The translations under genes and the position numbers were made by a program. From IMG/VR virus record IMGVR_UViG_3300035565_000044, positions 36,523-100,522 of that record: a DNA stretch of 64,000 nucleotides; one strand, written 5' to 3'. The stretch's first letter is position 1. Each line of letters begins with the position of its first letter. This document shows positions 2,260-56,817 of this stretch, in pieces. Under the pieces are notes generated by a model. The model worked only from the letters and a program-made list of their open reading frames with translations, ran no database searches and was not told the origin of the DNA. Source of the DNA: a virus.

Positions 2260-2275
2260 TGTTTCACGTGGAACA
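2260..2275. promoter_or_regulatory. parS-like site
   Basis: TGTTTCACGTGGAACA, matches the bacterial parS consensus. Confidence 0.8.
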
Positions 2276-2336
2276 TGAAAGCAAATACAGGAGGTGGACG
2301 AGGTGCATATTCACGTCATTGAATGTTTCCTAAAGT

Positions 2337-2412
2337 TGGTAGCGGGAGCCAGATTCGAACTGACGACCTCCTGGTTATGAGCCAGACGGGCTTACCTCTG
2401 CCCTATCCCGCA
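2337..2412 (-). tRNA. tRNA-Met(CAU), probably initiator
   Basis: Cloverleaf with CTCATAA loop, TTCGAAT T-loop, encoded CCA, unpaired 1:72. Confidence 0.9.
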
Positions 2413-2416
2413 TTAT

Positions 2417-2503
2417 TGGTCACGGACTGCGGACTTGAACCGAAGACTTCCACCTAATAGATTGCTCTAGGGCGGTGGCGTTCTACCATTAAACTACCCG
2501 CAA
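2417..2503 (-). ncRNA. tRNA-like RNA with anticodon loop replaced by a 19-nt insert containing a TAGA-GCAA-TCTA hairpin
   Basis: D arm GTTT-AATGGTA-GAAC, stem CCACC/GGTGG, T-loop TTCAAGT, 3' CCA. Confidence 0.7.
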
Positions 2504-2506
2504 CAA

Positions 2507-2578
2507 TGGCGCTCCTACACAGGATCGAACTGTGATTTTCAGGATTGAAAGCCTTATCCCTCACCAGAGGATAGGAGC
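2507..2578 (-). tRNA. tRNA-Glu(UUC), atypical (short D arm, weak anticodon stem)
   Basis: GCTCCTA/TAGGAGC acceptor, CTTTCAA loop, TTCGATC T-loop, CCA. Confidence 0.7.
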
Positions 2579-2585
2579 ATATACT

Positions 2586-2645
2586 ACTCGTTACGTCACG
2601 TCAAGTTACGGGGCAAAGCGTCAAGACACGATACGATGCATCATG
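2586..2645 (-). repeat. Pentamer array A (12 units), candidate guide RNA
   Basis: CATGA TGCAT CGTAT CGTGT CTTGA CGCTT TGCCC CGTAA CTTGA CGTGA CGTAA CGAGT. Confidence 0.8.
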
Positions 2646-4353: not shown

Positions 4354-4370
4354 GGATCACTTTCTCCTCT

Positions 4371-5144: not shown

Positions 5145-5280
5145 TACCTTTACGTAGAGAAGCGGCGGCTACGTCTGTTTTGCAGCCGTTGAATGTAGAA
5201 CCACGCCCACACTGAGATAGCATGGTGGCTAATTTTCTAATTTTGGTTAAATCTTCTTGAGAGAAGTGGCTTTGCGGCAT
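5050..5280 (-). CDS. Hypothetical protein (start moved to MPQSH)
   Basis: The upstream extension of the ORF is array C plus a parS site. Confidence 0.4.
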   Translation of the reverse strand: MPQSHFSQEDLTKIRKLATMLSQCGRGSTFNGCKTDVAAASLRKGIVILEEYLNDEDERGIHPDNDPGHVQATTPE

Positions 5281-5281
5281 T

Positions 5282-5297
5282 TGTTCCACGTGAAAAT
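5282..5297. promoter_or_regulatory. parS-like site abutting the 3' end of array C
   Basis: TGTTCCACGTGAAAAT. Confidence 0.65.
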
Positions 5298-5355
5298 ACG
5301 TTGCGTTATGATGCGGAGAGATACGATGCGCCACGTGACGTCAAGTTGCGCTGCG
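5296..5355 (-). repeat. Pentamer array C (12 units), candidate guide RNA
   Basis: CGCAG CGCAA CTTGA CGTCA CGTGG CGCAT CGTAT CTCTC CGCAT CATAA CGCAA CGTAT. Confidence 0.85.
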
Positions 5356-5357
5356 TC

Positions 5358-5394
5358 ATCCGATTCAGATAGTCCACCTAGCGGGAGGAGTCAA
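5358..5394 (-). promoter_or_regulatory. Promoter and operator directly upstream of array C
   Basis: TTGACT-17-TATCTG; ATCCG-ATT-CAGAT at 5358-5370. Confidence 0.6.
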
Positions 5395-5959
5395 CCCTCA
5401 AAAATTGTCCACACCCCCTTTCAAAAAAAGTCCAACATGTTACGTTTTCGTATTGACTTCCAACCGGGCGCGTTGTAAAATTTTTACTATGCTGCTATTG
5501 GCAGGCCCAGACAGAGATAACTCCCTAAAATCGAAGAATATCGCAACCAGATAGGTGAAAACCTTCCTGGTTTTCCGTGTTTATCACTCATTTGGTTAAA
5601 AATCGATGCCAGGACAGAATGTATGGATTGCTTCCATTTTTTCTGAAGCAAACGGCCATGCGCAGAATCATCTAGACTTCGGCGCCGCGAATCGTTTAAG
5701 GTCCGGAAACGAACAAAGGCCGGTGCTCCCTGAGAAAGAGCAACCGGCCTTCAAAAAGCATAAATCTGAACAGTGCCCCTCGCAAGAGCAATTCAGAAAG
5801 GAACTTTAGAAACCAAGCTTGGGCTATCTAGCTTCAGCTAAAGGCGGCTTTTGCCGTTCCAGGCGCCAACTTTACTTCTGGCGTCAACCAATGTCCGCTC
5901 CGAACGCGTCAGGTCGCCTTGACGTGTAACGGACCTATGCGCTCCAGTCAAGGAAAAAT

Positions 5960-7454: not shown

Positions 7455-8807
7455 ATGGCCGATTCTACTGCACAAAAAAATAATGTCAATAAGTTTTTGC
7501 CAGAGTACGAATCACAGAGTGTTTTCCGCTCAGACGGGGCTGACTACGCATACACACTGGTATCTAACAGACTGCTCCAAGACTCTGGCATTGATTGGGA
7601 AACCAGGGGAATGATTGCGGACCTGCTGAGCAGGCCAAAGGACTGGGATATTAGCGTTATGGGGCTGGTGGCTATGGCCAATGGCCTAACTAAGAAAGCA
7701 AAAATTTATAGGATGATAAACGCCGCTATGGCGAGTGGGTACATCCGACGCTTTACCAAGCGTGGCGCCGATGGACGTGTGGCTGGATATACGTATGTCG
7801 TATCAGACAACCCTTCTCGCCTTGCACTGCTTTCCGATTTTCAGGAAACTGCTAAGCAGGAAGCTGAAAAACAGCCACAACAAAGTAAAGATCTTAAAAA
7901 AGTAAAAACAGAAAAAAAATACACAGCGCCAACATCGCATTTCCCACATTTTGAAGAGGACATGGAAACAAAAACTCCCCCCATCCCCCAAGGGGGGAGT
8001 GGTCATTCCTGCGTCATGACCGTTCGTGAAAACGCCGAGCCTACAAGCCAACCATCCCAACCAACGTGGGAGGACGAGGAAGGGTTTGTTAACCATATTA
8101 AGATAGACGACTCCGCTACTCATTCCACTTCAATGGTATCCAGCCTTGAGGAAACGCCAGAAGCGGTGAAAGCTGAAACCCTGGTCCTGACGCCCCCAGA
8201 GCCAGAAGCGCCGTCTGTGACGCGTAAGAAGGCCAAGAAAGCGCCTTCTACGAAGCTGGACCACAATACCGACCCTGAGTTTGGAAAATTCTGGGATAAA
8301 TACCCAAATAAGAAAGGAAAGGCTGGCTCTTACGCCCATTGGAAGAGATTTTGTAAGGATAAACCGGAGCTGGCTTCTCTTTTGCCACAGGCCGCTATGG
8401 AATACGAGAGCGATCTTCGTAGGCAGTACAAGAGCGCTTCTGAGGCTAAGCAGCGCACCTGCTGTGGATATAATTGGTTCAACAAAGGTCTCCATGAGTA
8501 CTATGTTGATGTTATAATTGAGAGAAGTAAGCCACAGCCTGTGGAAAATTCAGAAAGCCAATTAGAGCAACGTGCACGCGAAGAACGCGAGAGAGTCGCT
8601 AGGGTAGCTGAAGCATGTTCTGAAACTAAGCGGGCTAGGTTCGTTGAATTCTTGTCAAAGGTGTACTCCAACGTTAAAGACGCATGGAACGAAAAGGTTA
8701 TTGAATATTTCCATGCCCGTAAGTACTGGGATATCGACGCCCTTATCCCAGTTGATGTGAAGAATGAAGCCAGGGCTGCTATCGGAGCTCCACTTCTGGC
8801 TTGTTAG
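7455..8807 (+). CDS. Phage replication initiator / replisome organizer
   Basis: N-terminal HTH (YTLVSNRLLQD...LLSRPKDW), FGKFWDKYPNKKGK motif, between helicase and primase. Confidence 0.75.
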   Translation: MADSTAQKNNVNKFLPEYESQSVFRSDGADYAYTLVSNRLLQDSGIDWETRGMIADLLSRPKDWDISVMGLVAMANGLTKKAKIYRMINAAMASGYIRRFTKRGADGRVAGYTYVVSDNPSRLALLSDFQETAKQEAEKQPQQSKDLKKVKTEKKYTAPTSHFPHFEEDMETKTPPIPQGGSGHSCVMTVRENAEPTSQPSQPTWEDEEGFVNHIKIDDSATHSTSMVSSLEETPEAVKAETLVLTPPEPEAPSVTRKKAKKAPSTKLDHNTDPEFGKFWDKYPNKKGKAGSYAHWKRFCKDKPELASLLPQAAMEYESDLRRQYKSASEAKQRTCCGYNWFNKGLHEYYVDVIIERSKPQPVENSESQLEQRAREERERVARVAEACSETKRARFVEFLSKVYSNVKDAWNEKVIEYFHARKYWDIDALIPVDVKNEARAAIGAPLLAC

Positions 8808-8822
8808 AAAGGAAAGATTACC

Positions 8823-9731
8823 ATGTCCGAAAGGTTTACCGACGCCGCCCGCTCCAGGGGCTTGCTTATACAAACTCCCATTGCTGATGGGACTGTTCAC
8901 CGAGTACGCACTTCTGACAAACCCCACTCCCGAAATGGCGCCTACGTGCTCTTTACCAACGGCCGGGGATGGTTCGAAAACCACGCTGACGGCATGGGGC
9001 GTCAGGAATACGCTCCAGAGTCTAAGGGCGGGCTCACAGCGGCCGAAAGGTATGAGGCTAGGATTAGGGTAGCCGAAGAGAGAAAGCGGTTCCAGGAGGC
9101 TCGCACAGAGGAATACAGAGCGGCTGCGCTGGAGGCCAAGGATCTCTTTGGCAGAGGGCTTATGGTCAAGGCGCATGGCTATCTGAGCGCTAAAGGCGTC
9201 CTCCCTCACGGACTGCGCGTTTTGGACGGCGCATTGCTTGTCCCAGTTCGAGACGCGAATGGGAACTGGCAGAGCTTGCAAAGGATTTTTTTAAATGGTT
9301 CAAAAACCTTTCTAAAGGGCGGGAGACTTGAAGGGGGGATGTTTGTCATTGGCAACATATACCCTGAAGGGGCGGCGCTGGTTGCCGAGGGTTACAGTAC
9401 TGGGGCGACTATCTATGAGGCGACGGGTTGCGCTACGATTGTGGCGTTCAACTGTGGAAACCTTACAAAGGTGGCTAGGTCCCTTAGGAAGAGATATCCT
9501 AAGTTGAAAATAATCATTTGCGCTGACGATGACCGGAACACGCGTGGAAACCCAGGACTGACAAGCGCGAGCGAAGCGGCTAGGGCGGTGGGTGGTTATC
9601 TGGCCAAACCAAATGTTAAAAAAGGTAGCGACTTCAACGATATGTGTGCTGAACTAGGCATGCAAGAGGTTAGGCGCGCGCTTATGGCGGTAGTGAAAGG
9701 TTGCATGGCAGAGCCGGATCGTGGTAAGTAG
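8823..9731 (+). CDS. TOPRIM-domain DNA primase (TraC-like)
   Basis: VAEGYSTG, IIICADDD and GSDFND motifs. Confidence 0.9.
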   Translation: MSERFTDAARSRGLLIQTPIADGTVHRVRTSDKPHSRNGAYVLFTNGRGWFENHADGMGRQEYAPESKGGLTAAERYEARIRVAEERKRFQEARTEEYRAAALEAKDLFGRGLMVKAHGYLSAKGVLPHGLRVLDGALLVPVRDANGNWQSLQRIFLNGSKTFLKGGRLEGGMFVIGNIYPEGAALVAEGYSTGATIYEATGCATIVAFNCGNLTKVARSLRKRYPKLKIIICADDDRNTRGNPGLTSASEAARAVGGYLAKPNVKKGSDFNDMCAELGMQEVRRALMAVVKGCMAEPDRGK

Positions 9732-9740
9732 GAGCATTAA

Positions 9741-9800
9741 CGTTTCGCCTCGTAACGCATCATAACACGCCTCTCCTCTTCGCACCATAACGTAACGTTT
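9741..9800 (+). repeat. Pentamer array D (12 units), candidate guide RNA
   Basis: CGTTT CGCCT CGTAA CGCAT CATAA CACGC CTCTC CTCTT CGCAC CATAA CGTAA CGTTT. Confidence 0.85.
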
Positions 9801-9811
9801 CATGTGAAACA
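9796..9811. promoter_or_regulatory. parS-like site overlapping the last unit of array D
   Basis: CGTTTCATGTGAAACA. Confidence 0.7.
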
Positions 9812-9848
9812 ATGCGCTACCTTGACAAAATCGTTGAGATAGCGCATT

Positions 9849-10235
9849 GTGCTTTTGTATGCAAAATTGAAAGGGATGAATATGTCTGAAGGGAATCAGT
9901 ACAACTCTGGCGCCCGACCACGGGCTAACAGACTTTTACTCGGAAAGTTATACGAAAAGACTAGTCAGAGTGGACAAAAGTATTTTCAAGGCGTTCTTGG
10001 ATTTCTAAAAGTCCTTGTTTTTCATGATGATAACGCGGAAGCGGGCAACGAATGGAATTTTTTCGTTGTAGAACGTGATCCTTCAGAAACTAAGCCTCGT
10101 CAGATTAGTGGTCCACCTCAGCACCAGCCCAACGCTGTAGGCCAAGGCGGCGGATATGGCGCTCAGACGGCCCCCCGCCCCATACGCCAGCCGCGACAGT
10201 TGCCTCCAGAAGGTGGGAGCAATGACCCTTTCTAA
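9849..10235 (+). CDS. Putative ssDNA-binding protein
   Basis: GKLYEKTSQSGQKYFQG beta-rich core, Gly/Gln/Pro tail ending DPF like SSB tips. Confidence 0.55.
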   Translation: MLLYAKLKGMNMSEGNQYNSGARPRANRLLLGKLYEKTSQSGQKYFQGVLGFLKVLVFHDDNAEAGNEWNFFVVERDPSETKPRQISGPPQHQPNAVGQGGGYGAQTAPRPIRQPRQLPPEGGSNDPF

Positions 10236-10776
10236 GCCTCCTAGAGGGTTCCTGACGCCTAGATGGGCGACAGAGGCTTTACTGTCCCATGTCGAACATT
10301 TGGTCAATGGCCTGGAGCCTGCGGCTGGTCAGGGGGGAATATCGAGAGTCTTGAAAGAAAGTGGTAAAAAAGTCGAATCTTTTGATATTTACGAGCACAA
10401 GGACGATGGAATAACGGTTAACCGGCGTAACTTCCTCAGTCAGCATTGGGACGTTAAATATTCAAACTTTCGAATGAAACTGAAAGCTTCGGATGGCGGG
10501 ATTATCTGCCATCCACCCCAGCATCTATTCAAACAGTTTATCAAGAAAGCATTGACGCTAACCGAGCACCACGGGACAGTGGCGTTCTGGCTTAGTCATT
10601 CAATTGACACAGAGCTCTGCTACCAGGAGTTCTTCCATGGAAGCGACGCATTTTATAAAAAGATCGTTCCAATTCAAAGACTAAGACTATCGGATGATAC
10701 TCTGGAGCCAATGGCGTGGTATATCTGGAGACATGGATATGGGGGAGTTCCGACTCTTCATTATGAAATAATTTAG
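10222..10776 (+). CDS. DNA amino-methyltransferase-like protein with altered catalytic motif
   Basis: FLTPRWATEALL, LEPAAGQG SAM-binding motif, HPPQ in place of NPPY. Confidence 0.65.
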   Translation: MTLSKPPRGFLTPRWATEALLSHVEHLVNGLEPAAGQGGISRVLKESGKKVESFDIYEHKDDGITVNRRNFLSQHWDVKYSNFRMKLKASDGGIICHPPQHLFKQFIKKALTLTEHHGTVAFWLSHSIDTELCYQEFFHGSDAFYKKIVPIQRLRLSDDTLEPMAWYIWRHGYGGVPTLHYEII

Positions 10777-10922
10777 GTGAGTAATGGGGCGTATGAGGAA
10801 TAGAGCGGTTGATGGAGTGCGCCGCCATAGGCGTAAATTTTCAATTGACCGTGAGAAGGCTATTGAAAGCACTATAGAGGAAATGATATCCATCATGAAT
10901 AGACTGATTATTTTAGTAAGAA

Positions 10923-11573
10923 GTGATGAGGATGGACTTGACTCTAATGAGGCAAATAGAGGAAACGGCAGTAGAGATATCAATGGAGCCACGGTGGCAA
11001 GACGCTACGGCCGAAAGGATAATGAAAGCCAAGAAGGCTGAACGGCAGGTCCATGAAAATATAGTATATGGTACAAACGGTTTTCCTACTGGTGAGAATC
11101 GTAGAGAAATTTATTCTGCTTTGGACACTCTTTACAGGCGTAACCCACCGATGATCTTAAAAGAAGAGTGGGAAGCTGGTTGCCATTTCTTATTTATATA
11201 TAGAAAATCAGAACAGCATACAAGAACTACAATGAAATGGGTAGCTCAAGTGGATGGAGGCGTTTATGCGCCAGACCCGCTAGAGTTTAAAGAGTTCTCA
11301 ATTAAAGAACTCTATTCAGCTAGCAAGTCAGTCCATCCCCAGGGGCGTACAGCCCTTACATGGCTTATAGAAAACGAATGGCATGATATGAGCCTCGTTG
11401 ACCTTGGAAGCCAATACCCTGGACCACAGGGAAGGGACGCCCAAAGAGAACGAGGCCGAGTCTATCTGCGGCTGGCGCTTAACGATTTAGGGAAGTACTT
11501 CGGATTTATTTCCCCCAATAACGCTTGGGATACCAGGAGGTTTCTGGAGCAATTATTGGGGAAGAGGCGTTAG
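10923..11573 (+). CDS. Putative late-transcription regulator (Q-like/DUF6456-like)
   Basis: C-terminal HTH-like region ending LRLALNDLGKYFG; last gene of replication block. Confidence 0.45.
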   Translation: MMRMDLTLMRQIEETAVEISMEPRWQDATAERIMKAKKAERQVHENIVYGTNGFPTGENRREIYSALDTLYRRNPPMILKEEWEAGCHFLFIYRKSEQHTRTTMKWVAQVDGGVYAPDPLEFKEFSIKELYSASKSVHPQGRTALTWLIENEWHDMSLVDLGSQYPGPQGRDAQRERGRVYLRLALNDLGKYFGFISPNNAWDTRRFLEQLLGKRR

Positions 11574-11935
11574 CGGTTCTTGTTCCTATTATATATGGTT
11601 TCTAGCGCAGTTATAGATTCGCTAGATAAGGCTTCTTTGAAAATCTCAATAAGCTTTTCATTGTTAGGAGTTTCCTTTTCGGTAGGGGCTGAGTCCCTGA
11701 GCGACACAGCCACCTTTGCCACCACGCCCCCAGCATAGTAGCACAGAGCGCAAATAACTTCGTTGTAGTCGCTCCCCCTTCTCTCCTCAGAATCAAGCCA
11801 CCTAAGGGCAGACTCTAGCATGTGTTTACGGGCGCGTCCTACGAGCGCGACCTGTTCGCTATCGCTGAGGCTATCTTGGTGGGCTGACTCCACCGCCGCA
11901 ACGATCATTTCATCAAGCTGCTTTTCAATGTCCAT
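11570..11935 (-). CDS. Hypothetical protein (start MDIEKQ)
   Basis: GAGGAG RBS; promoter TTGCAA-17-TACAAG at 11982-11954. Confidence 0.55.
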   Translation of the reverse strand: MDIEKQLDEMIVAAVESAHQDSLSDSEQVALVGRARKHMLESALRWLDSEERRGSDYNEVICALCYYAGGVVAKVAVSLRDSAPTEKETPNNEKLIEIFKEALSSESITALETIYNRNKNR

Positions 11936-11990
11936 ATTTTTCTCCTCTAACCCCTTGTATCCGTTACGGACGTTCGTTGCAAATGAGAAA

Positions 11991-12006
11991 AGTTTCACGT
12001 GGAGCA
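11991..12006. promoter_or_regulatory. parS-like site
   Basis: AGTTTCACGTGGAGCA, between divergent promoters. Confidence 0.55.
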
Positions 12007-12015
12007 TTTTCCTCG

Positions 12016-12044
12016 TTGACATGGGGTTAATTAGGGCTTAATTA
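12016..12044 (+). promoter_or_regulatory. Promoter for the Y RNA cluster
   Basis: TTGACA with AT-rich -10 (GCTTAATTA) about 17 nt downstream. Confidence 0.6.
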
Positions 12045-12054
12045 TCTCTTCACA

Positions 12055-12120
12055 GCCGGTGGCTAGGAAGTCGATTACAACGTCTTGTGAACGCTAACAT
12101 CGCCTCCGCTTTCCCCCGGC
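12055..12120 (+). ncRNA. Y RNA-like 1 (minimal)
   Basis: Closing stem GCCGG/CCGGC; scaffold TGGCTAG..CGATTACA...ATCG..GCTTTCC shared with RNAs 2 and 3; upstream of Ro60 gene. Confidence 0.7.
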
Positions 12121-12130
12121 GTCTGAATTT

Positions 12131-12268
12131 TTGTGTCGTGGCTAGGGATACGATTACATCTTCTATAGACAAGAAGACTTGCTTGGTTCGATTCCGAGCT
12201 CCCCCACCATCTACGGGGGAGTGTCCAGGGTGGACAGTCGTTATCGTCCCCGCTTTTTCCCGACGCAA
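12131..12268 (+). ncRNA. YrlA-like Y RNA 2 with circularly permuted tRNA module
   Basis: Stem TTGTGTCG/CGACGCAA; T arm CTTGG-TTCGATT-CCGAG; closed acceptor CTCCCCC-ACCATCTAC-GGGGGAG; then D-like hairpin. Confidence 0.85.
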
Positions 12269-12275
12269 CTTAATT

Positions 12276-12415
12276 CAGTGGAGTGGCTAGATTTCCGATT
12301 ACAACGATAGCTCAGTTGGTAGAGCAACAGACTTCATATCTGTAAGTCGTAGGTTCAAACCCTACTCGTTATCCCGTAAGGGGTAATCCATCGTAAATCG
12401 TTTTTCCCTCCACTG
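12276..12415 (+). ncRNA. Y RNA-like 3 carrying a non-permuted tRNA cloverleaf (UCA at the anticodon position)
   Basis: Stem CAGTGGAG/CTCCACTG; D arm GCTC-AGTTGGTA-GAGC; ACAGA-CTTCATA-TCTGT; T arm GTAGG-TTCAAAC-CCTAC; no CCA end. Confidence 0.8.
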
Positions 12416-12425
12416 CTTTAAACAG

Positions 12426-12462
12426 GCGCCGGTTCCTTCGCAAGAGGGGATCGGCGTTTTTT
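12426..12462 (+). terminator. Intrinsic terminator after the Y RNAs
   Basis: CGCCGGTTCCTT/AGGGGATCGGCG stem followed by T6. Confidence 0.8.
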
Positions 12463-12481
12463 GTTTGTAATGCGTAATTTA

Positions 12482-12536
12482 CGTCTCGCTTCATAGCGTG
12501 TCGTGACGTGCCGCAACTCACCGTAACGTAACGTCT
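12482..12536 (+). repeat. Pentamer array E (11 units), candidate guide RNA, in the Ro60 leader
   Basis: CGTCT CGCTT CATAG CGTGT CGTGA CGTGC CGCAA CTCAC CGTAA CGTAA CGTCT. Confidence 0.85.
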
Positions 12537-12553
12537 TGTAGAAAGGAAAGAAA

Positions 12554-13960
12554 ATGGCTCGTACTAATACTAGGACCAGAGCGCCACGCCCTCTGACGCA
12601 TGAAGGCGCTCCAGCCGATAGGATCACAAAAGAGCAAGAGTTGCGCCGCTCTGTGTCTTGCTGCCTGCTTTGGGAGAATGAATTCTATGAAAGCGGTGAA
12701 GACATTGCTAGCCGCATCAGGCGTCTCGCGCTGGAATGTTCTCCTCAATTTGTGTCTAATCTTGCTATTGATGTTCGCAATCGTCTTCACCTTCGTCACG
12801 TTCCTCTTTGGCTGCTTTGCGCTTTGGCTAAAACTGGAACTGGAATTCCGGGGCTTGTGGGGAATACTGTAGCACAAACCATCCAACGCCCAGACGAAAT
12901 TCCTGAGCTTTTGGCGCAGTATTACAAGGCCAATGGCGTTGCTATTAAGGATAAGGGCGGAAAGATCAACAAGATCAAGATGCCTAAGCAATTCAAGAAT
13001 GGTATCGCGCGAGCCTTCACTAAGTTCAACGAGTACTCGCTGGATAAGTGGAACAAAGACGGCGATATCTCCTTGAAATACGCCATGCGCGGCGTCCATC
13101 CAAAGCCAAAGGATGAGGCTCAGGCTCAGTTGTGGGCTAAGCTTTTGGGTAAGGAAGATAAGGAAACTGGCAAGTCTCAGAAGCTTAAGACGGCAGATAC
13201 AGTCATGTCCGCCTTGAGCGCTGGAAAAGAAAAGAAAACAGCAGAAGATAAGAAAACTGTTTTCGAGCGCCAGTTGCGTGAAGGAAAGATTGGATATTTC
13301 GCGTTATTGAAGAACTTGCGCGGGATGGTTGATGCTGGCGTTGACAGGCAGCTCGTTATTGACGCATTGCGCGCTAGGAAGGGAGACAAGGGAATTTTGC
13401 CGTTTCGCTATGTTTCCGCTGCGCGGGCGGCGCCAACGTATGAACCATATGTTGATGAAGCTCTTCAGCACGCGATTAAGAGCAGCAGGGAACTTCCAGG
13501 GCATACTTGGGTGCTTGTTGACGTTAGCGGCTCCATGGACGCCAGTATCTCTGCAAAGAGTGATCTTAGCCGGATAGACGCCGCTGCGGCTCTGGCGTCT
13601 CTGATTCACGGAGACAGAACAGTTATTACGTTCAGCAATGAAATAAAAGTTGTTCCAAGTCGCCACGGTATGGCTGGAATTGAGGCTATTCTCAAGAGCC
13701 AGATTCATAGCGGTACTGAGATGGGAAGGGCCATAAAGTATGTGAATGATCGCGCCAAGCCCCAAGATCGGCTTATCGTGATCACTGACGAACAGAGCGG
13801 GGATGTCGTCCCTGATCCAGTTTGCCAGAACGCATACGTCATAAATGTTGCGTCCTACCGCAATGGCGTCAGTTACGGCCATGGATGGAACCATATTGAC
13901 GGTTGGAGCGAAGCCGTGATAGATTACATTCATGAGCATGAGGCTACGCTTAAATTGTAG
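12554..13960 (+). CDS. rsr: Ro60/Rsr-like TROVE-domain RNA-binding protein with C-terminal VWA
   Basis: THEGAPA, LLWENEFYESG, VHPKP, ALLKNLR, LPFRY, VDVSGSM and VITDEQS motifs; adjacent Y RNAs. Confidence 0.95.
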   Translation: MARTNTRTRAPRPLTHEGAPADRITKEQELRRSVSCCLLWENEFYESGEDIASRIRRLALECSPQFVSNLAIDVRNRLHLRHVPLWLLCALAKTGTGIPGLVGNTVAQTIQRPDEIPELLAQYYKANGVAIKDKGGKINKIKMPKQFKNGIARAFTKFNEYSLDKWNKDGDISLKYAMRGVHPKPKDEAQAQLWAKLLGKEDKETGKSQKLKTADTVMSALSAGKEKKTAEDKKTVFERQLREGKIGYFALLKNLRGMVDAGVDRQLVIDALRARKGDKGILPFRYVSAARAAPTYEPYVDEALQHAIKSSRELPGHTWVLVDVSGSMDASISAKSDLSRIDAAAALASLIHGDRTVITFSNEIKVVPSRHGMAGIEAILKSQIHSGTEMGRAIKYVNDRAKPQDRLIVITDEQSGDVVPDPVCQNAYVINVASYRNGVSYGHGWNHIDGWSEAVIDYIHEHEATLKL

Positions 13961-13974: not shown

Positions 13975-13998
13975 GCTACGCCCATAGCATGCTGATAG

Positions 13999-14040
13999 GC
14001 CCGCCCCTTGATCGCACCAGGGGGCGGGTTTATTTTATTT
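13999..14040 (+). terminator. Intrinsic terminator
   Basis: GCCCGCCCC/GGGGCGGGT stem plus T-rich tail. Confidence 0.75.
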
Positions 14041-45415: not shown

Positions 45416-46288
45416 GTGTTTCACGTGAAAATCCATTGCATGAGCGATTTGCATCTTGAGCATGGGGACTTAAAGCTTCCTGGTGGGGATATCCTGGTGT
45501 TGGCGGGGGATATCTGGGTGGCTAAGCACATGCTGTTAAGTTCAGATGAGCATTTTATTAAGTTGCGCGGGAGATACGTGCGTTTTGTTGAGGAAGAGCT
45601 AAAGAAATATAAGCAAGTGCTTGTGGTTAAGGGGAACCATGAATGTTATGGTTCAATTATTGAGGAAACGTCTGAGATTATCAAGGATTTTGTGGTAAGA
45701 TTCTCCCATAGAGTGGCGCTTTTGGACGATGAGGCCGCAATAATTGACGGCGTGGCGTTCATTGGCTCAACCATGTGGGCAACCTATGGAGCCAGCGACG
45801 TTTTGGGCGAGATTCGCGTCAGAAACAGCATGAACGACTGCCGTGTCATCATGACGCATACAGAGCCGAAGGACGGCTGGGGACGGCTCCCTCCCCATTC
45901 CCGCGCTATGCTCCCTTCTGACTTTGAAAAGATTCATAAACAGAGTAGGAAGCGGGTTCTTGATCTATTAAAGAAGCATGCGGATAAGCCGTGCGTCCTA
46001 ATTACGCACCATGCGCCCACCTACGCCAGCGGGAAATATGATCCTCATTGGGGTAAAGGGTTAGATGAAGCTTATTATTCTAATTTCCTCGATTATGCTG
46101 TTCGAAAGCACAAAAATATTGTTGCGGCGGTCCACGGTCACACTCATATTAAGGTCAGATTCGAACACCATGGGGTGCTGGTGGTGTCCAATCCTAGGGG
46201 ATACGCAGGCCACGAGCCTATGGCGAACGAATTTGACCCAGAAGCAGGCGATTTTGAGATAACCAAGGAAGGAAAGATAGCAGAATGA
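45416..46288 (+). CDS. Calcineurin-like metallophosphoesterase
   Basis: SDLH, LAGD, GNHE, THHAP, HGHTH and NPRGY motifs. Confidence 0.92.
   Translation: MFHVKIHCMSDLHLEHGDLKLPGGDILVLAGDIWVAKHMLLSSDEHFIKLRGRYVRFVEEELKKYKQVLVVKGNHECYGSIIEETSEIIKDFVVRFSHRVALLDDEAAIIDGVAFIGSTMWATYGASDVLGEIRVRNSMNDCRVIMTHTEPKDGWGRLPPHSRAMLPSDFEKIHKQSRKRVLDLLKKHADKPCVLITHHAPTYASGKYDPHWGKGLDEAYYSNFLDYAVRKHKNIVAAVHGHTHIKVRFEHHGVLVVSNPRGYAGHEPMANEFDPEAGDFEITKEGKIAE
45417..45432. promoter_or_regulatory. parS-like site
   Basis: TGTTTCACGTGAAAAT. Confidence 0.65.
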
Positions 46289-47689: not shown

Positions 47690-48109
47690 GTGGGGAAGAG
47701 AAGTTACTTTTATGAATGTGAGGATGGTGCGCTCATGGCAGTAGAACCAGAAGACGTTATGAAACGTAATGCGTTGAAGGATGAATATAATCCATATGGT
47801 TACGTTATCAAGCGCCCAGAAGATGTGGCGCATCCTCCCTTTATGACAGAGGATGGAATGTTGATCGACAGCACCGATGACGCTCGTGTAAACAACAATC
47901 CATCTGAAAGAAGCGTCGCCAATGATCCTATGTGTATGAAGTATCGCGTTCTTACTGAAGCAGAGAAGGCGCAGATGGGGAGCCTGAAGCGGGACTATGC
48001 GGATATGTATGAGGTCCTTAACGCTCTAGGCTCCAGTCGTGAACTGTCGATAGCAAAGACGAAGTTGGAAGAATCGTGTATGTGGGCAGTCAAGCACATT
48101 ACGCGTTAG
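47690..48109 (+). CDS. Acb2/Tad1-like nucleotide-signal sponge candidate (likely start 47735)
   Basis: YRVLTEAEK and SRELSIAKTKLEESCMWAVK resemble Acb2/Tad1 helical hairpin motifs. Confidence 0.6.
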   Translation: MGKRSYFYECEDGALMAVEPEDVMKRNALKDEYNPYGYVIKRPEDVAHPPFMTEDGMLIDSTDDARVNNNPSERSVANDPMCMKYRVLTEAEKAQMGSLKRDYADMYEVLNALGSSRELSIAKTKLEESCMWAVKHITR

Positions 48110-48423: not shown

Positions 48424-48499
48424 TGGTGCCAGTTGCAGGCTTCGAACCCACGACCCCCGTCTTACAAGGACGATGCTCTACCAACTGAGCTAAACTGGC
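48424..48499 (-). tRNA. tRNA-Thr(UGU)
   Basis: Canonical cloverleaf, CTTGTAA loop, CCA. Confidence 0.95.
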
Positions 48500-48514
48500 A
48501 TTCCACGTGAAATG
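48499..48514. promoter_or_regulatory. parS-like site forming the spacer between two tRNAs
   Basis: CATTCCACGTGAAATG. Confidence 0.5.
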
Positions 48515-48589
48515 GTCGGAGAAACAGGAATCGAACCTACAACCCCTAGCTCCCAAAGCTAGTGCTCTACCAGATTGAGCTATTCTCCG
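48513..48589 (-). tRNA. tRNA-Pro(UGG)
   Basis: Canonical cloverleaf, TTTGGGA loop, CCA. Confidence 0.95.
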
Positions 48590-48625
48590 CCTATGCTTAT
48601 TCTAAGTATACCAACAAAAATTTAG

Positions 48626-48697
48626 AAGTCCAGTGGAGAATCGAACTCCAATCAGGCGGTTATGAGCCGCCAGCTTTAACCGTTAAGCTACAGGACC
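48626..48697 (-). tRNA. tRNA with CAU anticodon (Ile2 or elongator Met), no encoded CCA
   Basis: GGCGG-CTCATAA-CCGCC arm, TTCGATT T-loop. Confidence 0.8.
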
Positions 48698-48704
48698 ATA
48701 AGAC

Positions 48705-48975
48705 TACGCTGAGAAGCAATTACAGCACCGAAACTCTATCAGAGCTAAGGCTATAGTAGGCTGTAACAACCCCTCAGCGTAAGATATGAGTGGTGATCAG
48801 GACTGGGTTTCCCCATTTTCTTGCTCTAGCCGTCCACCCGTATGACAGTCCTACATGGCGCACAGGTGCTGCAATTCCTCTTTCGAGCCTGATAAAGCCA
48901 CTCTAGAAGCGCCAGACTAGGGTGAGATGGCGCCCGTCCGTCAATCACCGGAGTTCGCCCCTTAGTCTGTCGCTG
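48705..48975 (-). ncRNA. Three closed structured RNA domains of unknown class within the tRNA operon
   Basis: Closing stems TACGCTGAG/CTCAGCGTA, GAGTGG..ATCAGG/CCTGAT..CCACTC and AGCG..CAGACTA/TAGTCTG..CGCT; GNRA loops on the minus strand. Confidence 0.5.
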
Positions 48976-48990
48976 CTACAATGGCTTGTA

Positions 48991-49088
48991 GCCCAGAGAA
49001 GGATTCTAACCTTCCTCCCCACCGTCAGGGTCAATTACTCCCTCGTGTGTCGCATGGGGACGCAACATTTCCAGCAGTTGCTCTGGAC
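48991..49088 (-). ncRNA. tRNA-like RNA with greatly extended anticodon arm
   Basis: Acceptor GTCCAGA/TCTGGGC, D-like GCAAC/GTTGC, TCCCCA/TGGGGA closing about 33 nt, T arm GAAGG-TTAGAAT-CCTTC. Confidence 0.6.
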
Positions 49089-49147
49089 ATAAGCTGAATA
49101 CGTCAACGGCGTACTCGAATGCTACCTCTACACATGGCAGAGAAGAC

Positions 49148-49222
49148 TGGCTGGCAAGACTGGATTCGAACCAGTAACCTACGCCTTAACAGGGCGACGC
49201 ACTACCATTGTGCTACTTGCCA
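49148..49222 (-). tRNA. tRNA-Asn(GUU)
   Basis: Canonical cloverleaf, CTGTTAA loop, CCA. Confidence 0.95.
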
Positions 49223-49324
49223 AAAGTAAGTAATACTGCTACAGCTAACATCATAATTAATAGCGCTATTATTATCCCAGCGCAACCCTGAACTTCTCTA
49301 TCTGGCATTGTAATATCTCTTTTT

Positions 49325-49523
49325 TGGTGGAGCCGGGGGGATTCGAACCCCCATGAGCCGGAACCTTGGCCAAGCATCACTGCACTAACAGTCATACAAT
49401 TCCAAGGCATATAGTCTTATAAACTGCGTGCTTACCCAGTGAAATTGGGACTATAATTTAATCCAGCCTGTCTTTCGACACCGCTTCAGTTTAGCGGCGC
49501 ATTCACCGTTGTGCTGCGGCTCC
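49325..49523 (-). ncRNA. 199-nt tRNA/tmRNA-like RNA
   Basis: Acceptor GGAGCCG/CGGCTCC-ACCA, T arm GGGGG-TTCGAAT-CCCCC, large internal multi-stem domain. Confidence 0.75.
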
Positions 49524-49527
49524 GTAT

Positions 49528-49614
49528 TGGTGGGCGCCGGTGGAATCGAACCACCCATGGACGCAATGCCTACGGATTTACAGTCCGTTCCCTTCTCCAG
49601 TTGGGTAGACGCCC
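49528..49614 (-). tRNA. tRNA-Tyr(GUA)
   Basis: CTGTAAA loop, long variable arm, CCA. Confidence 0.93.
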
Positions 49615-50479: not shown

Positions 50480-51310
50480 ATGGAAAGGCTGTCTGAAAGG
50501 CAGACTATGACTAATAAGATTACTCTTTGCAAAGATGAGAGCGGCGAACCAATGGCGGATAGCCGCCATGTTGCAGAACGGCTTGGACGCCAGCATAAGC
50601 ACATTCTCGAAGCGATAAAGCTCTTGGATTTGTCTTTAGATTTCAAAGGCCGGAATTTCCGACCTTTGAGAATCAAAGACTTAGCAGGAGAAAGGTTGTC
50701 ACATATTTTGATGACCGAACGTGGATTTATGGGGCTGTGCAGATCACTCAAGGGTGGCGTCGCCTCAGAAATTTACGAGGCGTTTGTAAACGAGTTTTAC
50801 CGTATGCGCTGTGAGTTGGAAATGTTGCGGGGGAATGCTCCTGTTCCTCAACTGTCTCAGCTTGAAATCGCCAAAATGGCGGTTGCAGGCTGGGAGAAGG
50901 CAGAGCAAGAGAGAGACGCTGCTCGCGCCCAACTTGCCGCCTCAGAACAGAACGTCGGCCGTCTATCGAACGAAGTCCAGGAGCTAAAGCCATCAGCAGC
51001 GGCGCTGGCGCTCATCACATCAAGTCCAAAGTCTATTCTTCCCCGCGCAGCAGCCAAGGCGCTTGGCGTAGGGCCGAATTATCTGTTCCAATGGTTTCGT
51101 GAAAATAAATGGATTTACGATTCGTCCAGTGGCGTCCTGCCAAACCAGGATAAGATAAACTATGGGCTCATGGAGTTAAAGTACTACGACCGTGGGCTTG
51201 AAGAATACCTTTCTGTGGACGCTCCAGGGCGCCGTCCACAGGTTATGGTCACAGGACGTGGAATGCAGAAGCTAGCGAAGATATTCGTTAATAATGTTGT
51301 AGCTATCTGA
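50480..51310 (+). CDS. Rha-family / antirepressor (KilAC-ANT C-terminus) protein
   Basis: DSRHVAERLGRQHKHIL N-terminus; AAKALGVGPNYLFQWF...VMVTGRGMQKL C-terminus. Confidence 0.85.
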   Translation: MERLSERQTMTNKITLCKDESGEPMADSRHVAERLGRQHKHILEAIKLLDLSLDFKGRNFRPLRIKDLAGERLSHILMTERGFMGLCRSLKGGVASEIYEAFVNEFYRMRCELEMLRGNAPVPQLSQLEIAKMAVAGWEKAEQERDAARAQLAASEQNVGRLSNEVQELKPSAAALALITSSPKSILPRAAAKALGVGPNYLFQWFRENKWIYDSSSGVLPNQDKINYGLMELKYYDRGLEEYLSVDAPGRRPQVMVTGRGMQKLAKIFVNNVVAI

Positions 51311-52957: not shown

Positions 52958-53593
52958 ATGAGCGAAATCGACAAGGTCGCAGATCGCAGCGTTGGTGAAC
53001 GGATAGCTAAAGAATTAGAAGGCATAGATCGTAAGCTATATAGGGGAGATGACCTGTACTGTCAGGAGATGATGGACAAGGTTTGCGAGCTTATATCAGT
53101 TGGTTATAGCATGAATGAGATAGCTAATATCACTGGAATAGCTACGAATACGATCTATAGATGGTGTTGGAAGAACAAAGCGTTCTCAGACTCCATGATT
53201 CTAGCTAGACGTAACCAAGCTCATGTACTTATGGACAGGGCGCATCAGGCGGCTGCGGATGGCGTTATCCACGAGAGAGAGAAAGACGCTAACTTCACCG
53301 TCAACGCCTATATTAAAATAGCTGAGAAGTTAAATCCTAGAAAATATGGTGTTAAGCTTGTCGAGTATAGTGGCGAGCAAGATATAAGGATAACCGATGA
53401 GCAAAGAACCCTCAGGATTCTTGAACTCCTCGCAAAGAACAATCCAGCCCTCATCGAACAAGCAGTCGAAGTTGACGCCCTCCCAGATTACTCAGATGTT
53501 GAAGAGTATGAGTCCGGAGAAGAGGAAGGCGCTCCTGACGAAGATTACTCCTACAGTAGACGATATTCGGGGCCTGGAGAAGACGGACGCTGA
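52958..53593 (+). CDS. terS: Terminase small subunit
   Basis: HTH (GYSMNEIA...TIYRW) and KLNPRKYG motif; upstream of TerL. Confidence 0.8.
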   Translation: MSEIDKVADRSVGERIAKELEGIDRKLYRGDDLYCQEMMDKVCELISVGYSMNEIANITGIATNTIYRWCWKNKAFSDSMILARRNQAHVLMDRAHQAAADGVIHEREKDANFTVNAYIKIAEKLNPRKYGVKLVEYSGEQDIRITDEQRTLRILELLAKNNPALIEQAVEVDALPDYSDVEEYESGEEEGAPDEDYSYSRRYSGPGEDGR

Positions 53594-54296
53594 AGAGTTA
53601 TATCAGCAGGCCGAGGCGCAAGCCAATTTTTCTAAGCATAATAAGCTTCTTACCCTTTACCCAGAATATGGGCCGCTTAGGAGGGGATTGTATAAGAAGC
53701 ATATGCAGTTCTTCCGTGCAGGTAAAGAGTATAATGAAAGAGCAGTTATTGCCGCTAACCGTTCTGGTAAATCATTTGGTATAGGCGGATACGAGACTAC
53801 GCTCCATCTAACTGGATTATATCCTGAATGGTGGGAAGGGCGCCGCTTCCATGGGCCAACAGAAGCATGGGCGGCAGGCGACACCAGCGAAACGACACGC
53901 GATATTATTCAGCATATTATGTTAGGAAATCCAGGGGAATTTGGAACTGGATTAATACCAAAAGATTGTATTCTAGGAAATCCTACGCATAGAGCTGGCG
54001 TTGCGGCTGCGGTAGACACAGTAAGAGTTCGCCATACATCAGGTGGAACTAGCTGGCTTGGTTTTAAATCATATGACCAGGGCCGAGCAAAGTTTCAAGG
54101 TACTGCGAAAGACATAGTATGGCTTGATGAAGAGCCGCCATTAGATGTGTATACTGAGTGTTTAACGCGTTTGATGACAAGAAACGGTATAATACTTTGT
54201 ACATTTACGCCACTAAGCGGATTGTCTGACGTGGTGCTGATGTATATGCCAAGCATGGCTCCAGAGCCGGATACAATTGAGATGGAGGCGTTTTGA
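53397..54296 (+). CDS. terL: Terminase large subunit, N-terminal ATPase part (P22-like)
   Basis: AANRSGKS Walker A, WLDEEPP Walker B, TFTP motif. Confidence 0.92.
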   Translation: MSKEPSGFLNSSQRTIQPSSNKQSKLTPSQITQMLKSMSPEKRKALLTKITPTVDDIRGLEKTDAEELYQQAEAQANFSKHNKLLTLYPEYGPLRRGLYKKHMQFFRAGKEYNERAVIAANRSGKSFGIGGYETTLHLTGLYPEWWEGRRFHGPTEAWAAGDTSETTRDIIQHIMLGNPGEFGTGLIPKDCILGNPTHRAGVAAAVDTVRVRHTSGGTSWLGFKSYDQGRAKFQGTAKDIVWLDEEPPLDVYTECLTRLMTRNGIILCTFTPLSGLSDVVLMYMPSMAPEPDTIEMEAF

Positions 54297-55054
54297 CAAG
54301 CGGGCGCTTCACACTTCAAATTGGTTGGGCTGACTGTCCGCATTTATCCAAGGCGGATTGTGAGCGCATGCTCAGAGCGTTCCCCGTCCACGAAAGGGAC
54401 GCGCGCTCTCTTGGTGTTCCGATGCTTGGCGCCGGAAAGGTATACCCAGTGAGTGAAGACGAATTCGTTATTGATCCATTTAAAATGCCAACATATTGGC
54501 CCCGTGCTTATGCTCTTGACGTTGGTTGGAAACGTACAGCGGCGGTATGGGGAGCAATAGACAGAGATGATGATATTCTGTATATATACAGCGAATATTA
54601 TCAGGGACATCAACCTCCCGCTGTCCATGCTTATGCTATCAAGGCGCGTGGTGAAAACCTAATTGGTTGCGTAGACCCTGCGGCGGCTGGCGTCAGTCAG
54701 GTTGATGGTAAATCTCTTATTAACGAGTACCGCAAAGCTGGATTGAGACTGTTTCCTGCTAATAATAAGGTTACAGGTCAAGAGGGCGGAATACATAATA
54801 TTTTTACGAGATTAACTGAAGGTAGATTGAAAATCTTCAGAACGTGTGTTAATCTTATTAAAGAAATGCGCATATATCGACGTAATGACCGTGGCGCAAT
54901 CGTAAAAGAGAACGACCATTTGTGCGACGCGCTTAGATATTTGTCGATGAGTAACATGGTTCATGCCCAGAAGCTTCGTGGAGACGAAGATGAAGAGGAT
55001 GACGCCGACAATGTCATTTCAATGGCTGGTAGAAGCAAAATAACTGGATACTGA
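54293..55054 (+). CDS. terL: Terminase large subunit, C-terminal nuclease part
   Basis: W..CPHL, GVPMLGAG, ALDVGW and DHLCDALRY motifs; GGAGG before TTG. Confidence 0.9.
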   Translation: MTSGRFTLQIGWADCPHLSKADCERMLRAFPVHERDARSLGVPMLGAGKVYPVSEDEFVIDPFKMPTYWPRAYALDVGWKRTAAVWGAIDRDDDILYIYSEYYQGHQPPAVHAYAIKARGENLIGCVDPAAAGVSQVDGKSLINEYRKAGLRLFPANNKVTGQEGGIHNIFTRLTEGRLKIFRTCVNLIKEMRIYRRNDRGAIVKENDHLCDALRYLSMSNMVHAQKLRGDEDEEDDADNVISMAGRSKITGY

Positions 55055-55055
55055 G

Positions 55056-55307
55056 ATGGCCAAGACCCCAGAGCACCACCGTTGGATACATTCCATGGCG
55101 AAGGATTTTATCGCTGCTGGCGGAGGCTCCACTCACAACTGGATTGCTGGCGCTACAAAGAACAAAGGCGCTCTGCACCGCGCTCTTGGCGTCCCACAAG
55201 GCCAGAAGATACCAGCATCTAAACTTGCTAAGGCTGCGCACAGCAAAAATCCAACTATGCGCAAGCGGGCGGCGCTGGCGAAGACACTTGCAGGTTTTCA
55301 TAAATAA
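55056..55307 (+). CDS. Small basic conserved phage protein
   Basis: NWIAGA..KGALHRALGVP..KIP..KLAKAA pattern. Confidence 0.65.
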   Translation: MAKTPEHHRWIHSMAKDFIAAGGGSTHNWIAGATKNKGALHRALGVPQGQKIPASKLAKAAHSKNPTMRKRAALAKTLAGFHK

Positions 55308-56611
55308 TGCCTGAGGACGAAGGTTACTTAGACCAATTCGGAAGATACGTCAGAAATTCAGCGGAAGCGCTTGGTCGCATACCCAGAGATTTAAGAACGT
55401 ACTGGAATGATCTGCCTTCGTCCTCCGGGGACTACGCTAGCGCCATAACAGGCGGCCCTGTCTACGCCGCAGATCAAGCTACGCGATTGGCGACACGTGG
55501 TCAATATGGCTATGCAGATGTGGCCAAATCCCTAGGCGGGACAGGCGAAGCGGCGCAGCAGAGCATAGACCGATTTAAAGGGGCGTATGGCCCTGTAACG
55601 CAGGCTGCTGGAGACGTGGGAACGTTTCTAGGCGAGGGTAGTAGGGGCGGCGTAAAAGTCAGCCCTAGCGAAGCCTGGACGGCCACAGAGCCAGCCCGTA
55701 GCAGATACGCAGAAGCGGCTACGATGGCTGGCGCTAGACGGAATATCATGATCGGTCCTGTAGGGGTTGAGAATCTATTCCATGCTGGCCGTCCAGCCGC
55801 CAAGCAGGCGTTTCAGATGGCGGACGACATGGCCGCTAAGGGACATACCAGGGACGAAATATGGGAAGCTACGGCTAATCATTTCCGTCGCCACGACCCT
55901 GAGTTTGCAGGCGTCCATTATGGACCTGATGGATTGCCACGGGCAGAATTAAGTGACGCTGGCGTTCCGTGGGCGGGTGGAACGCCAGAGAATATGCCAG
56001 TTCATGGCGTAGATTTAACAGAACCAGAAAAAGCATGGCCACATGCTACTCTGTATCAAGCTTACCCAGAAATGGGAAATCGCGGTCTAATCGTTAGTAA
56101 TCCTCCGCCGTCCGCGACGAATACAATATATGGATCATATGATCCTAGAAGTAAATCTCTTGCTATTAACTTAAATAAGATATACCCTCCTGAAAGCGTT
56201 ATAGTCCACGAGTCTCAGCATGGCGTTCAAGGAACGGAGGGGATGCTAACTGGAAGTCACTGGCGTAATTTTCCAGTTAACTCGGTTAACGTTCAAAAAA
56301 CATTAAAAGACCCATCGCTTGACCCAAAACTTGCTAATGACATGATAGATGTCGCCCAAAGACACATGGGTTTCAAGGGAGACACGATGGATGAACTTAA
56401 TAAATTTGCAGAAGAAAAAGGAATGATTCCATCTGTATTTGCTATGAATTTAAGTGCAAAAATTCCTAGAGACAAATACAATAGGACATATGGAGAGACA
56501 GAGGCGCGCAACGCGCAGACTCGCTACCATATGAATGCAGAAGAGCGCAGACAGACGCCACCCTGGAAAACGTTTGATTATCCAGAGAATAAACTCATTA
56601 CGGAATACTGA
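55307..56611 (+). CDS. LPD23-like protein with zincin HExxH motif
   Basis: HESQHGVQGTEG and YNRTYGETEARNAQTR...PWKTFD motifs. Confidence 0.65.
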   Translation: MPEDEGYLDQFGRYVRNSAEALGRIPRDLRTYWNDLPSSSGDYASAITGGPVYAADQATRLATRGQYGYADVAKSLGGTGEAAQQSIDRFKGAYGPVTQAAGDVGTFLGEGSRGGVKVSPSEAWTATEPARSRYAEAATMAGARRNIMIGPVGVENLFHAGRPAAKQAFQMADDMAAKGHTRDEIWEATANHFRRHDPEFAGVHYGPDGLPRAELSDAGVPWAGGTPENMPVHGVDLTEPEKAWPHATLYQAYPEMGNRGLIVSNPPPSATNTIYGSYDPRSKSLAINLNKIYPPESVIVHESQHGVQGTEGMLTGSHWRNFPVNSVNVQKTLKDPSLDPKLANDMIDVAQRHMGFKGDTMDELNKFAEEKGMIPSVFAMNLSAKIPRDKYNRTYGETEARNAQTRYHMNAEERRQTPPWKTFDYPENKLITEY

Positions 56612-56620
56612 GGAACCAAA

Positions 56621-56803
56621 ATGGCAGACGCCTCTGTTGGGATACGCAAAGACCCGAACTACGGACCAAATCCGGAGCAGATTTTCAATCATCAGAAAAG
56701 CGAACTTATCCGCTATAAAAAGTCTATGTCTATGCATATGCTTGGTGAAAAGCTTGAAAAGCCTAAGCATCCACGTGGCAATTCCGCTCCAAAGACAGAC
56801 TAA
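56621..56803 (+). CDS. Small hypothetical protein
   Basis: GAGG RBS; fills the gap before the portal gene. Confidence 0.5.
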   Translation: MADASVGIRKDPNYGPNPEQIFNHQKSELIRYKKSMSMHMLGEKLEKPKHPRGNSAPKTD

Positions 56804-56817
56804 TTTCACGTGAAACA
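56802..56817. promoter_or_regulatory. parS-like site
   Basis: AATTTCACGTGAAACA, upstream of portal. Confidence 0.65.

Follow-up and report, generated by a model that had tools for sequence, protein, structure and literature searches.

Dispersed chromosomal-type parS palindromes in an uncultured 100-kb phage genome, candidate loading sites for host ParB

The virus record IMGVR_UViG_3300035565_000044 of IMG/VR is a complete uncultured phage record of 100,522 bp (48% GC) with 123-bp direct terminal repeats, and we describe here a set of palindromes dispersed along it that match the chromosomal ParB-loading site, parS. The stretch on which the analysis is centred, called the window below, comprises 64,000 nucleotides at genome positions 36523-100522, such that window position 1 is genome position 36523; coordinates are those of the window unless marked as genome positions. 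Pfam scans of 176 open reading frames (ORFs) recognise functions of replication and metabolism (DnaB, a Toprim primase, a replication initiator, ERF and a dCMP deaminase), virion proteins (an Sf6-type TerS, TerL in two ORFs, an SU10-type portal and podophage tail proteins), and Ro60, GroES, Acb2/Tad1, Rha/ANT and HNH nucleases; they return no integrase and no partition family. A megablast search against phages gave no match for the genome.

Sites were sought by two criteria: matches to the 16-mer TGTTTCACGTGAAACA with no more than three mismatches (criterion A), for which 100 dinucleotide-preserving shuffles served as the null, and matches to a 14-mer with no more than two mismatches (criterion B), with weak sites found through a search for the 12-bp core. 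Over the whole genome there are 21 sites by criterion A and 21 by criterion B, and 20 are common to both lists. Those in the window, together with two weak and doubtful ones, are the following.

2260-2275, TGTTTCACGTGGAACA: between a tRNA-Met gene (2337-2412, minus strand) and the Shine-Dalgarno (SD) sequence and start of the gene at 1802-2242 (minus strand); identical to the main parS of phage phi29
5282-5297, TGTTCCACGTGAAAAT: within the divergent non-coding region 5145-5959
9796-9811, CGTTTCATGTGAAACA: past the primase gene and 10 nt ahead of a TTGACA; letter for letter the same in the related fragment L166
11991-12006, AGTTTCACGTGGAGCA: 9 nt ahead of the TTGACA-18-AATTAT promoter of the Y-RNA/Ro60 unit; kept in L166
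13959-13974, AGTTTCATGTGAAACT: overlapping the Ro60 stop codon, 20 nt ahead of the terminator at 13994-14034
16754-16769, AGTTTCACGTGAAACG: a perfect 14-mer between the genes at 16225-16755 and 16762-17205
19601-19616, CGTTTCACGTGGAACT: between the stop of the gene at 19615-20139 (minus strand) and the terminator at 19601-19572
23645-23660, CGTTTCACATGAAACA: directly past the terminator at 23701-23666 (minus strand), 13 nt ahead of an SD sequence and ATG
27644-27659, TGTTTCACGTGAATTC: 18 nt upstream of a minus-strand SD sequence and ATG
33056-33071, TGTTTCATGTGAAACG: in a strand-switch intergenic region
34568-34583, GGTTTCACGTGAAACA: a perfect 14-mer at the end of a small ORF
35084-35099, AGTTTCGCGTGAAATG: a weaker site, 11 nt ahead of the gene at 35111-35386
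39116-39131, TGTTTCACGTGAAAGA: inside the ORF at 38886-39362, which scores as coding
45417-45432, TGTTTCACGTGAAAAT: 7 nt ahead of the ATG of a metallophosphatase gene
56802-56817, AATTTCACGTGAAACA: 15 nt ahead of the portal gene
48499-48514, CATTCCACGTGAAATG: weak and doubtful, filling the 13-nt spacer between tRNA-Thr and tRNA-Pro
57861-57876, AATTCCACGTGAAGAT: weak and doubtful, inside the portal gene

A scan of the remaining 36.5 kb adds six sites, at genome positions 2962, 9573, 16686, 26540, 31249 and 34372.

Criterion A returns 15 matches in the 64-kb window, compared with a mean of 0.25 and a maximum of two in the shuffles, none of the 100 reaching 15. One match of the 16-mer scan, at 63088, lacks the CACGTG core and is probably a chance occurrence. 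An earlier, sequence-only reading of the window had placed parS-like sites at 15 start positions; the 16-mer scan reproduces 14 of these exactly and confirms their enrichment over shuffled sequence, while the remaining one (48499), with four mismatches to the 16-mer and one to the 12-bp core, is recovered by the core search, as are the two that had been called weaker (35084 and 57861). Only about two such sites occur in roughly 540 kb of unrelated phage loci, and TTTCACGTGAAA is the only repeated palindrome of the genome, being present in eight exact copies where any other 12-bp palindrome occurs at most once. When IMG/VR was scanned for the exact 14-mer, the result was mostly single matches or tight clusters.

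Alignment of the 42 folded half-sites reveals those positions that are held and those that vary. The outer T is present in 50% of them, followed by G1 (83%), T2 (93%) and T3 (100%); position 4 is a T in 81% and a C in 19%, C5 and A6 are each present in 98%, and position 7 is a C in 90% and a T in 10%. This profile equals the chromosomal parS consensus tGTTNCACGTGAAACa, including the known variable position (PMC7022226), and the identification of the motif as the chromosomal ParB-loading consensus made in the earlier reading is thereby borne out. We note that G1 and A6 are the half-site bases that tell parS from the Noc site NBS, and that residue R173 of ParB contacts G1 (PMC7383237). The core shared by the 21 sites is GTTTCACGTGAAAC, and three of them are exact 14-mers. 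Half-sites of the form GTTYCAC lying beyond the full sites number 23 in the whole genome, where 25 +/- 4 are expected, and on this count an enrichment of half-sites of the Pseudomonas aeruginosa type was rejected. Because the full palindromes are enriched and the half-sites are not, the pattern points to a dimeric binder of the full site.

The sites thus have the same 14-16-bp sequence as the chromosomal ParABS centromere and the same tolerated variation at half-site position 4 (PMC7022226), but a chromosomal centromere comprises few sites near the origin and beside parAB, whereas the phage has 21 of them dispersed over 100 kb and no canonical parAB. For example, each of five Asticcacaulis genomes has one cluster of 3-4 sites within 3.5 kb, mostly exact copies of TGTTTCACGTGAAACA, which in the two genomes checked is 1.5-2 kb away from the chromosomal parB; their other matches (with no more than two mismatches) are at the level of a reversed-pattern control. 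The sequence of the phage sites is that of the chromosomal consensus and of the centromere sites in these candidate-host genomes, and parS-type sites are five to seven times as numerous in the 100-kb phage as in a 4-5 Mb genome from the Asticcacaulis clade.

As remarked in the earlier reading, the sites are mostly at gene boundaries: at least 16-17 of the 21 are intergenic or coincide with a stop or start codon, compared with a non-coding share of about 11% for the genome. Two are inside genes (genome 16686 and window 39116), and two are uncertain in this respect (genome 9573 and 31249). Sites precede the next start codon by anything from 1 to 100 nt, on which ground a fixed geometry relative to start codons or promoters was rejected. 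Strong terminator hairpins are touched by four sites (window 19601 and 23645, genome 2962 and 34372), and the order of stop codon, site and terminator is seen at both 13959, behind Ro60, and 19601. A TTGACA follows three of the 21 sites at 9-19 nt, with a good -10 element at 11991, a weak one at 9796 and none at 34568. Such varied geometry is not what a classical operator or a translational element would show. The position of the sites at gene boundaries, the four that adjoin strong terminator hairpins, the one 20 nt ahead of a terminator and the two weak ones that abut tRNA genes could instead suggest that the palindromes punctuate transcription units, as processing or stability hairpins, terminator accessories or roadblocks, and have nothing to do with ParB. 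We regard this as a slim prospect, the least probable of the explanations considered here: the hairpin that could form is short and weak (5-6 bp), the distances to terminators vary as widely as those to starts, the sites fall on both sides of terminators and in early as well as late regions, and nothing would oblige an RNA element to follow a 14-bp DNA consensus down to its degenerate position. Moreover, a proven parS of the Bacillus phage phi29, at 17244, shows this same order, lying between the stop codon of gene 16 and the terminator TD1.

The sites are also spread more evenly than chance would have it. The 21 sites are on average 4.8 kb apart (median 4.0 kb), and the coefficient of variation of the gaps is 0.59, compared with 0.94 when sites are placed uniformly at random (P=0.008) and 1.06 when they are assigned at random to intergenic gaps (P=0.001). 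The regions within 2 kb on either side of the sites make up 70% of the genome, as against 58% for random sites (P=0.001). The reach of Caulobacter ParB around one parS is at most about 2 kb (PMC5815017); the phage sites are therefore spaced at about the distance at which adjoining ParB zones could meet.

The closest precedent is phi29 (and Nf), a virulent Bacillus phage whose five parS sites are used through the host Spo0J/ParB in spore entrapment, and whose genome is segregated into the prespore by Spo0J, as set out in PMC2731898, which cites Meijer et al. 2005. As a positive control, the 14-mer scan with up to two mismatches was applied to the phi29 genome (NC_011048) and returned exactly the five published sites, of which four have the sequence TGTTTCACGTGGAACA found at window 2260, at a density of one per 3.9 kb. 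The two phages are alike in being virulent, in having no canonical ParB of their own and in their density of parS sites (five in 19.3 kb, and 21 in 100.5 kb). They differ in that the phage described here has four times the sites, which are spread evenly over the genome, mostly intergenic and less perfect, while those of phi29 are in the right half of its genome and mostly inside genes; the host also differs, being in the present case probably a Gram-negative bacterium that does not sporulate. Since that is the probable host, spore entrapment is probably not the purpose here, which would then be other than in phi29.

We consider it moderately probable that the palindromes are parS sites of the chromosomal type that load host ParB onto the phage DNA, as they do in phi29. 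This reading draws on the match to the consensus within its natural tolerance, the presence of the full dimeric site only, the lack of a canonical ParB or ParA, and the phi29 precedent. Recruitment of host ParB had already been put forward in the sequence-only reading, and that part of it gains from the same observations and from the dispersal of the sites, although the phi29 precedent was not cited there. A less probable binder is one encoded by the phage itself, either an ORF with a ParB/sulfiredoxin (Srx) fold or a weak HTH_3 protein.

Six-frame searches of the complete genome gave no match to ParB_N, HTH_ParB, TIGR00180 or ParA (AAA_31). The earlier statement that no parA or parB is visible in the window therefore extends, for canonical genes, to the whole genome, with the caveat that the ORF with the ParB/Srx fold lies outside the window. 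This ORF (genome 28631-29668, minus strand; L002:8634-9668) encodes 335 residues, is next to ERF, and was found by a motif search through its IDGRHRL motif. It matches no Pfam or NCBIfam model. Its AF2 model (pLDDT 90.6) predicts an N-terminal domain of about 100 residues with a ParB/sulfiredoxin fold, for which the fold matches are ParB, KorB, Noc, PadC and Srx (Z 5-5.9, rmsd about 3 A over about 85 residues); it has DGRHR in place of the GERRxRA box, and neither Pfam nor a fold search found a ParB-type helix-turn-helix (HTH) in the helical remainder. The family to which it belongs has 13,277 representatives with the consensus 'NR...DGQHRL.A' and is common in phage replication modules, DnaB co-occurring in 12 of 80 loci. 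In the 80 phage loci with homologues (1.1 Mb), repeated palindromes are absent and parS-type matches at two mismatches number only four. Membership of this family thus does not go together with the sites, which lowers the chance that the binder is phage-encoded. The only recognisable DNA-binding candidates are a weak HTH_3 protein (window 41391-41756) and a weak HTH_23 ORF.

As the main alternative to host ParB, it could be argued that the palindromes form the genome-wide binding or operator network of a dimeric phage protein, be it the one with the predicted ParB/Srx fold, the weak HTH_3 protein or an unrecognised one, and that their identity with host parS is mimicry or coincidence. The IDGRHRL motif and the modelled N-terminal domain speak for this, as does the site at genome 31249, which is upstream of the ERF operon containing that ORF; two sites abut TTGACA promoters, and the sites are imperfect, with outer bases that are not conserved. 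We nevertheless think it rather unlikely, because the ORF has none of the ParB family matches, no GERRxRA box and no ParB-type HTH, its homologues occur in loci free of repeated palindromes, and most sites have no adjacent promoter, some being situated between a stop codon and a terminator. Host ParB could, moreover, still bind even if a phage protein shared its specificity exactly. A known system of this general kind is KorB of the IncP-1 plasmid RK2, a CTP clamp of the ParB family that loads at dispersed OB sites, slides and exerts its effect at a distance (PMC11790492). OB is likewise a palindrome of 13-16 bp found over a whole mobile genome, with some sites adjacent to promoters and others far away. 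However, RK2 encodes KorB, and OB (TTTAGCGGCTAAA) is unlike host parS, whereas the phage has no canonical ParB-family gene and its site is the host-type consensus and not an operator private to the element. The linear plasmid-prophage N15 similarly has centromere sites dispersed in a phage genome, in the form of four repeats of the sopC type, but it is temperate and encodes its own SopAB.

If host ParB is indeed the protein that binds, dimers would nucleate at each of the sites after entry of the DNA, close as CTP clamps and slide outward, and with clamps loaded about every 4 kb ParB would come to cover most of the phage genome. If phi29 is taken as a guide, the most likely selected effect would be that the host partition machinery (ParA) positions or partitions the phage DNA; a probable accompanying effect would be that ParB is drawn off the host centromere, disturbing segregation and division. 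Two strong parS sites make a plasmid lethal in Caulobacter, where MipZ and division are also disturbed by ectopic sites (PMC5815017); the titration of ParB that the earlier reading also suggested is for this reason plausible in hosts of the Caulobacter type. In its fullest form, which we offer tentatively and regard as unlikely, the proposal is that a virulent phage of a non-sporulating and possibly dimorphic alphaproteobacterium hijacks host partition by its DNA alone and with no phage protein: the 21 sites would load ParB-CTP over nearly the whole phage chromosome, the resulting second ParB condensate would be positioned by ParA, or carried by it to a pole or a daughter cell, and ParB together with a division control of the MipZ type would be stripped from the host centromere, so arresting segregation and division. 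The use of another replicon's partition system by a mobile element that does not rely on one of its own has a parallel in SGI1, although SGI1 hijacks the ParABS of the IncC helper plasmid, for stability and helper exclusion (PMC10954446), and here it is the chromosomal system that would be used.

The same site evidence would also serve a plasmid-like carrier or lysogenic state in which the phage DNA hitch-hikes on host ParABS, for which the segregation of the phi29 genome into the prespore (PMC2731898) is again a precedent, and an antirepressor-type Rha/ANT gene (window 50480-51310) and the weak HTH_3 regulator could be cited. We find this very unlikely, since the phage looks like a virulent podophage in its 123-bp terminal repeats and its gene content, the Pfam scans of 176 ORFs detect no family of integrases, protelomerases, plasmid Rep/Par proteins or repressor modules, and strong parS makes a plasmid lethal in Caulobacter (PMC5815017).

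What can be said of the host comes from gene content, which points to a host that is probably Gram-negative and non-sporulating. The closest bacterial relatives of the phage Ro60, at 50-53% identity, are from Asticcacaulis and other Caulobacterales, Brevundimonas, Hyphomicrobiaceae, Hoeflea and Mesorhizobium, and the phage tail proteins contain domains of gene transfer agent (GTA) type and podophage domains; together these give a weak hint of an alphaproteobacterial host. The Ro60 gene itself (TROVE and vWA domains, in the region of window 12055-13960) comes after structured RNA genes, among them a tRNA-like one at 12301-12375 that ARAGORN calls as tRNA-SeC (tca). A 57.7-kb contig of Asticcacaulis sp. 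AC466 encodes a 51% identical Ro60. When viral loci bearing Ro60 were compared with the phage genome by tblastx, Ro60 alone was shared, the small extra matches being noise, and a tail-fibre query in GTDB genomes found nothing. A search of sequencing runs returned one freshwater metagenome with a 0.05 share of the sampled words, which was rejected as evidence of habitat.

Relatives of the phage were sought in IMG/VR and JGI with the portal, DnaB, a 546-aa ATPase, Ro60, the phosphatase and P0121 as queries, and these searches yielded short fragments only (L003/L005, L004, L006, L007, L008 and L166). In L166, an IMG/VR fragment with 94.6% nucleotide identity over window 8604-12826, both of its sites are unchanged, which at this similarity is weak evidence of conservation. 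In L007, with a portal of 75% identity, TGTTCCACGTGAAACG is present at the corresponding place, between the stop of the upstream gene and the SD sequence of the portal gene, with diverged flanks. Close relatives thus retain three of the sites in total. Since L166 and L007 have sites, L003 has none in 11 kb, and L004 and L006 lack the one ahead of the portal gene, the sites are a feature of part of the lineage. No more than one site is present in any of the more distant portal relatives, namely the Alcaligenes phage QDWS535 and two phages from Manatee Spring. That of the Alcaligenes phage (vB_Af_QDWS535, OK172329.1, 50 kb; locus L144) is a perfect GTTCCACGTGGAAC at 47935-47948, in a region where only a 54-aa hypothetical coding sequence (CDS) is annotated; GTTCCACGTGGAAC is the parS variant usual in Pseudomonas and Burkholderiales, and the site may be another host-type parS on a phage.

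Several observations count against the loading of host ParB. Not one of the 21 sites is an exact copy of the 16-mer TGTTTCACGTGAAACA and only seven fit GTTYCACGTGRAAC; the outer T/A is kept in about half of the phage sites but in every Asticcacaulis centromere site examined. Two sites are immediately upstream of sigma-70-like promoters, as operators would be, and the ORF at genome 28631-29668 (minus strand), with its predicted ParB/Srx fold, is in principle a candidate binder. The site ahead of the portal gene is absent from L004 and L006, whose portals are 77-79% identical. The hint of a Caulobacterales host comes from a single gene, Ro60, at the identity of 50-53% given above; no close relatives were found in 401 Caulobacterales genomes, the portal query giving relatives at 30-35% in two of them, and there was no match to a CRISPR spacer, a 20-kb DNA search of 301 Caulobacteraceae genomes returning two short matches that are not spacers.

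As far as we found, host-type parS on a virulent phage devoid of ParB is experimentally established only for phi29 and its relatives, and our literature search turned up no description of host parS on a lytic phage of Gram-negative bacteria. What is new here relative to phi29 is the number of sites, their even tiling of the genome, their intergenic placement and a host that is probably non-sporulating. If host ParB does load at these sites, it would mean that phages more generally use cis-acting centromere mimics, which could position or coat phage DNA, or disable host segregation and division, without the expression of any protein; a high density of parS without a parB would then be a simple sequence signature by which to find such phages.

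Some further features of the window may be mentioned. A frameshifted ParB-methyltransferase was considered at 9849-10776 and rejected, there being no Pfam match to ParB or to a methylase. The 206-aa ORF at 10156-10773 matches only the middle (residues 217-378 of 458) of PHROG 799, 'DNA methyltransferase', and could be a remnant or a divergent domain; the overlapping upstream ORF at 9849-10235 has no matches. TerL is encoded by two overlapping ORFs (53397-54296 and 54293-55054), with the ATPase N-domain and the nuclease C-domain apart, and two 'large terminase' CDSs are annotated in the related Manatee Spring phage MW202785.1 as well, so that the split may be real and not an assembly error. Between 36270 and 64000, one ORF contains the Acb2/Tad1 hairpin domain of anti-CBASS/anti-Thoeris sponges (E 7e-17), and a GroES (Cpn10) match in the same region is probably to the ORF right after the portal gene, by synteny with relatives. 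A cluster of five tRNA genes, for Thr, Pro, Met, Asn and Tyr, is located at 48424-49614 on the minus strand, separate from the tRNA-Met gene at 2337-2412.

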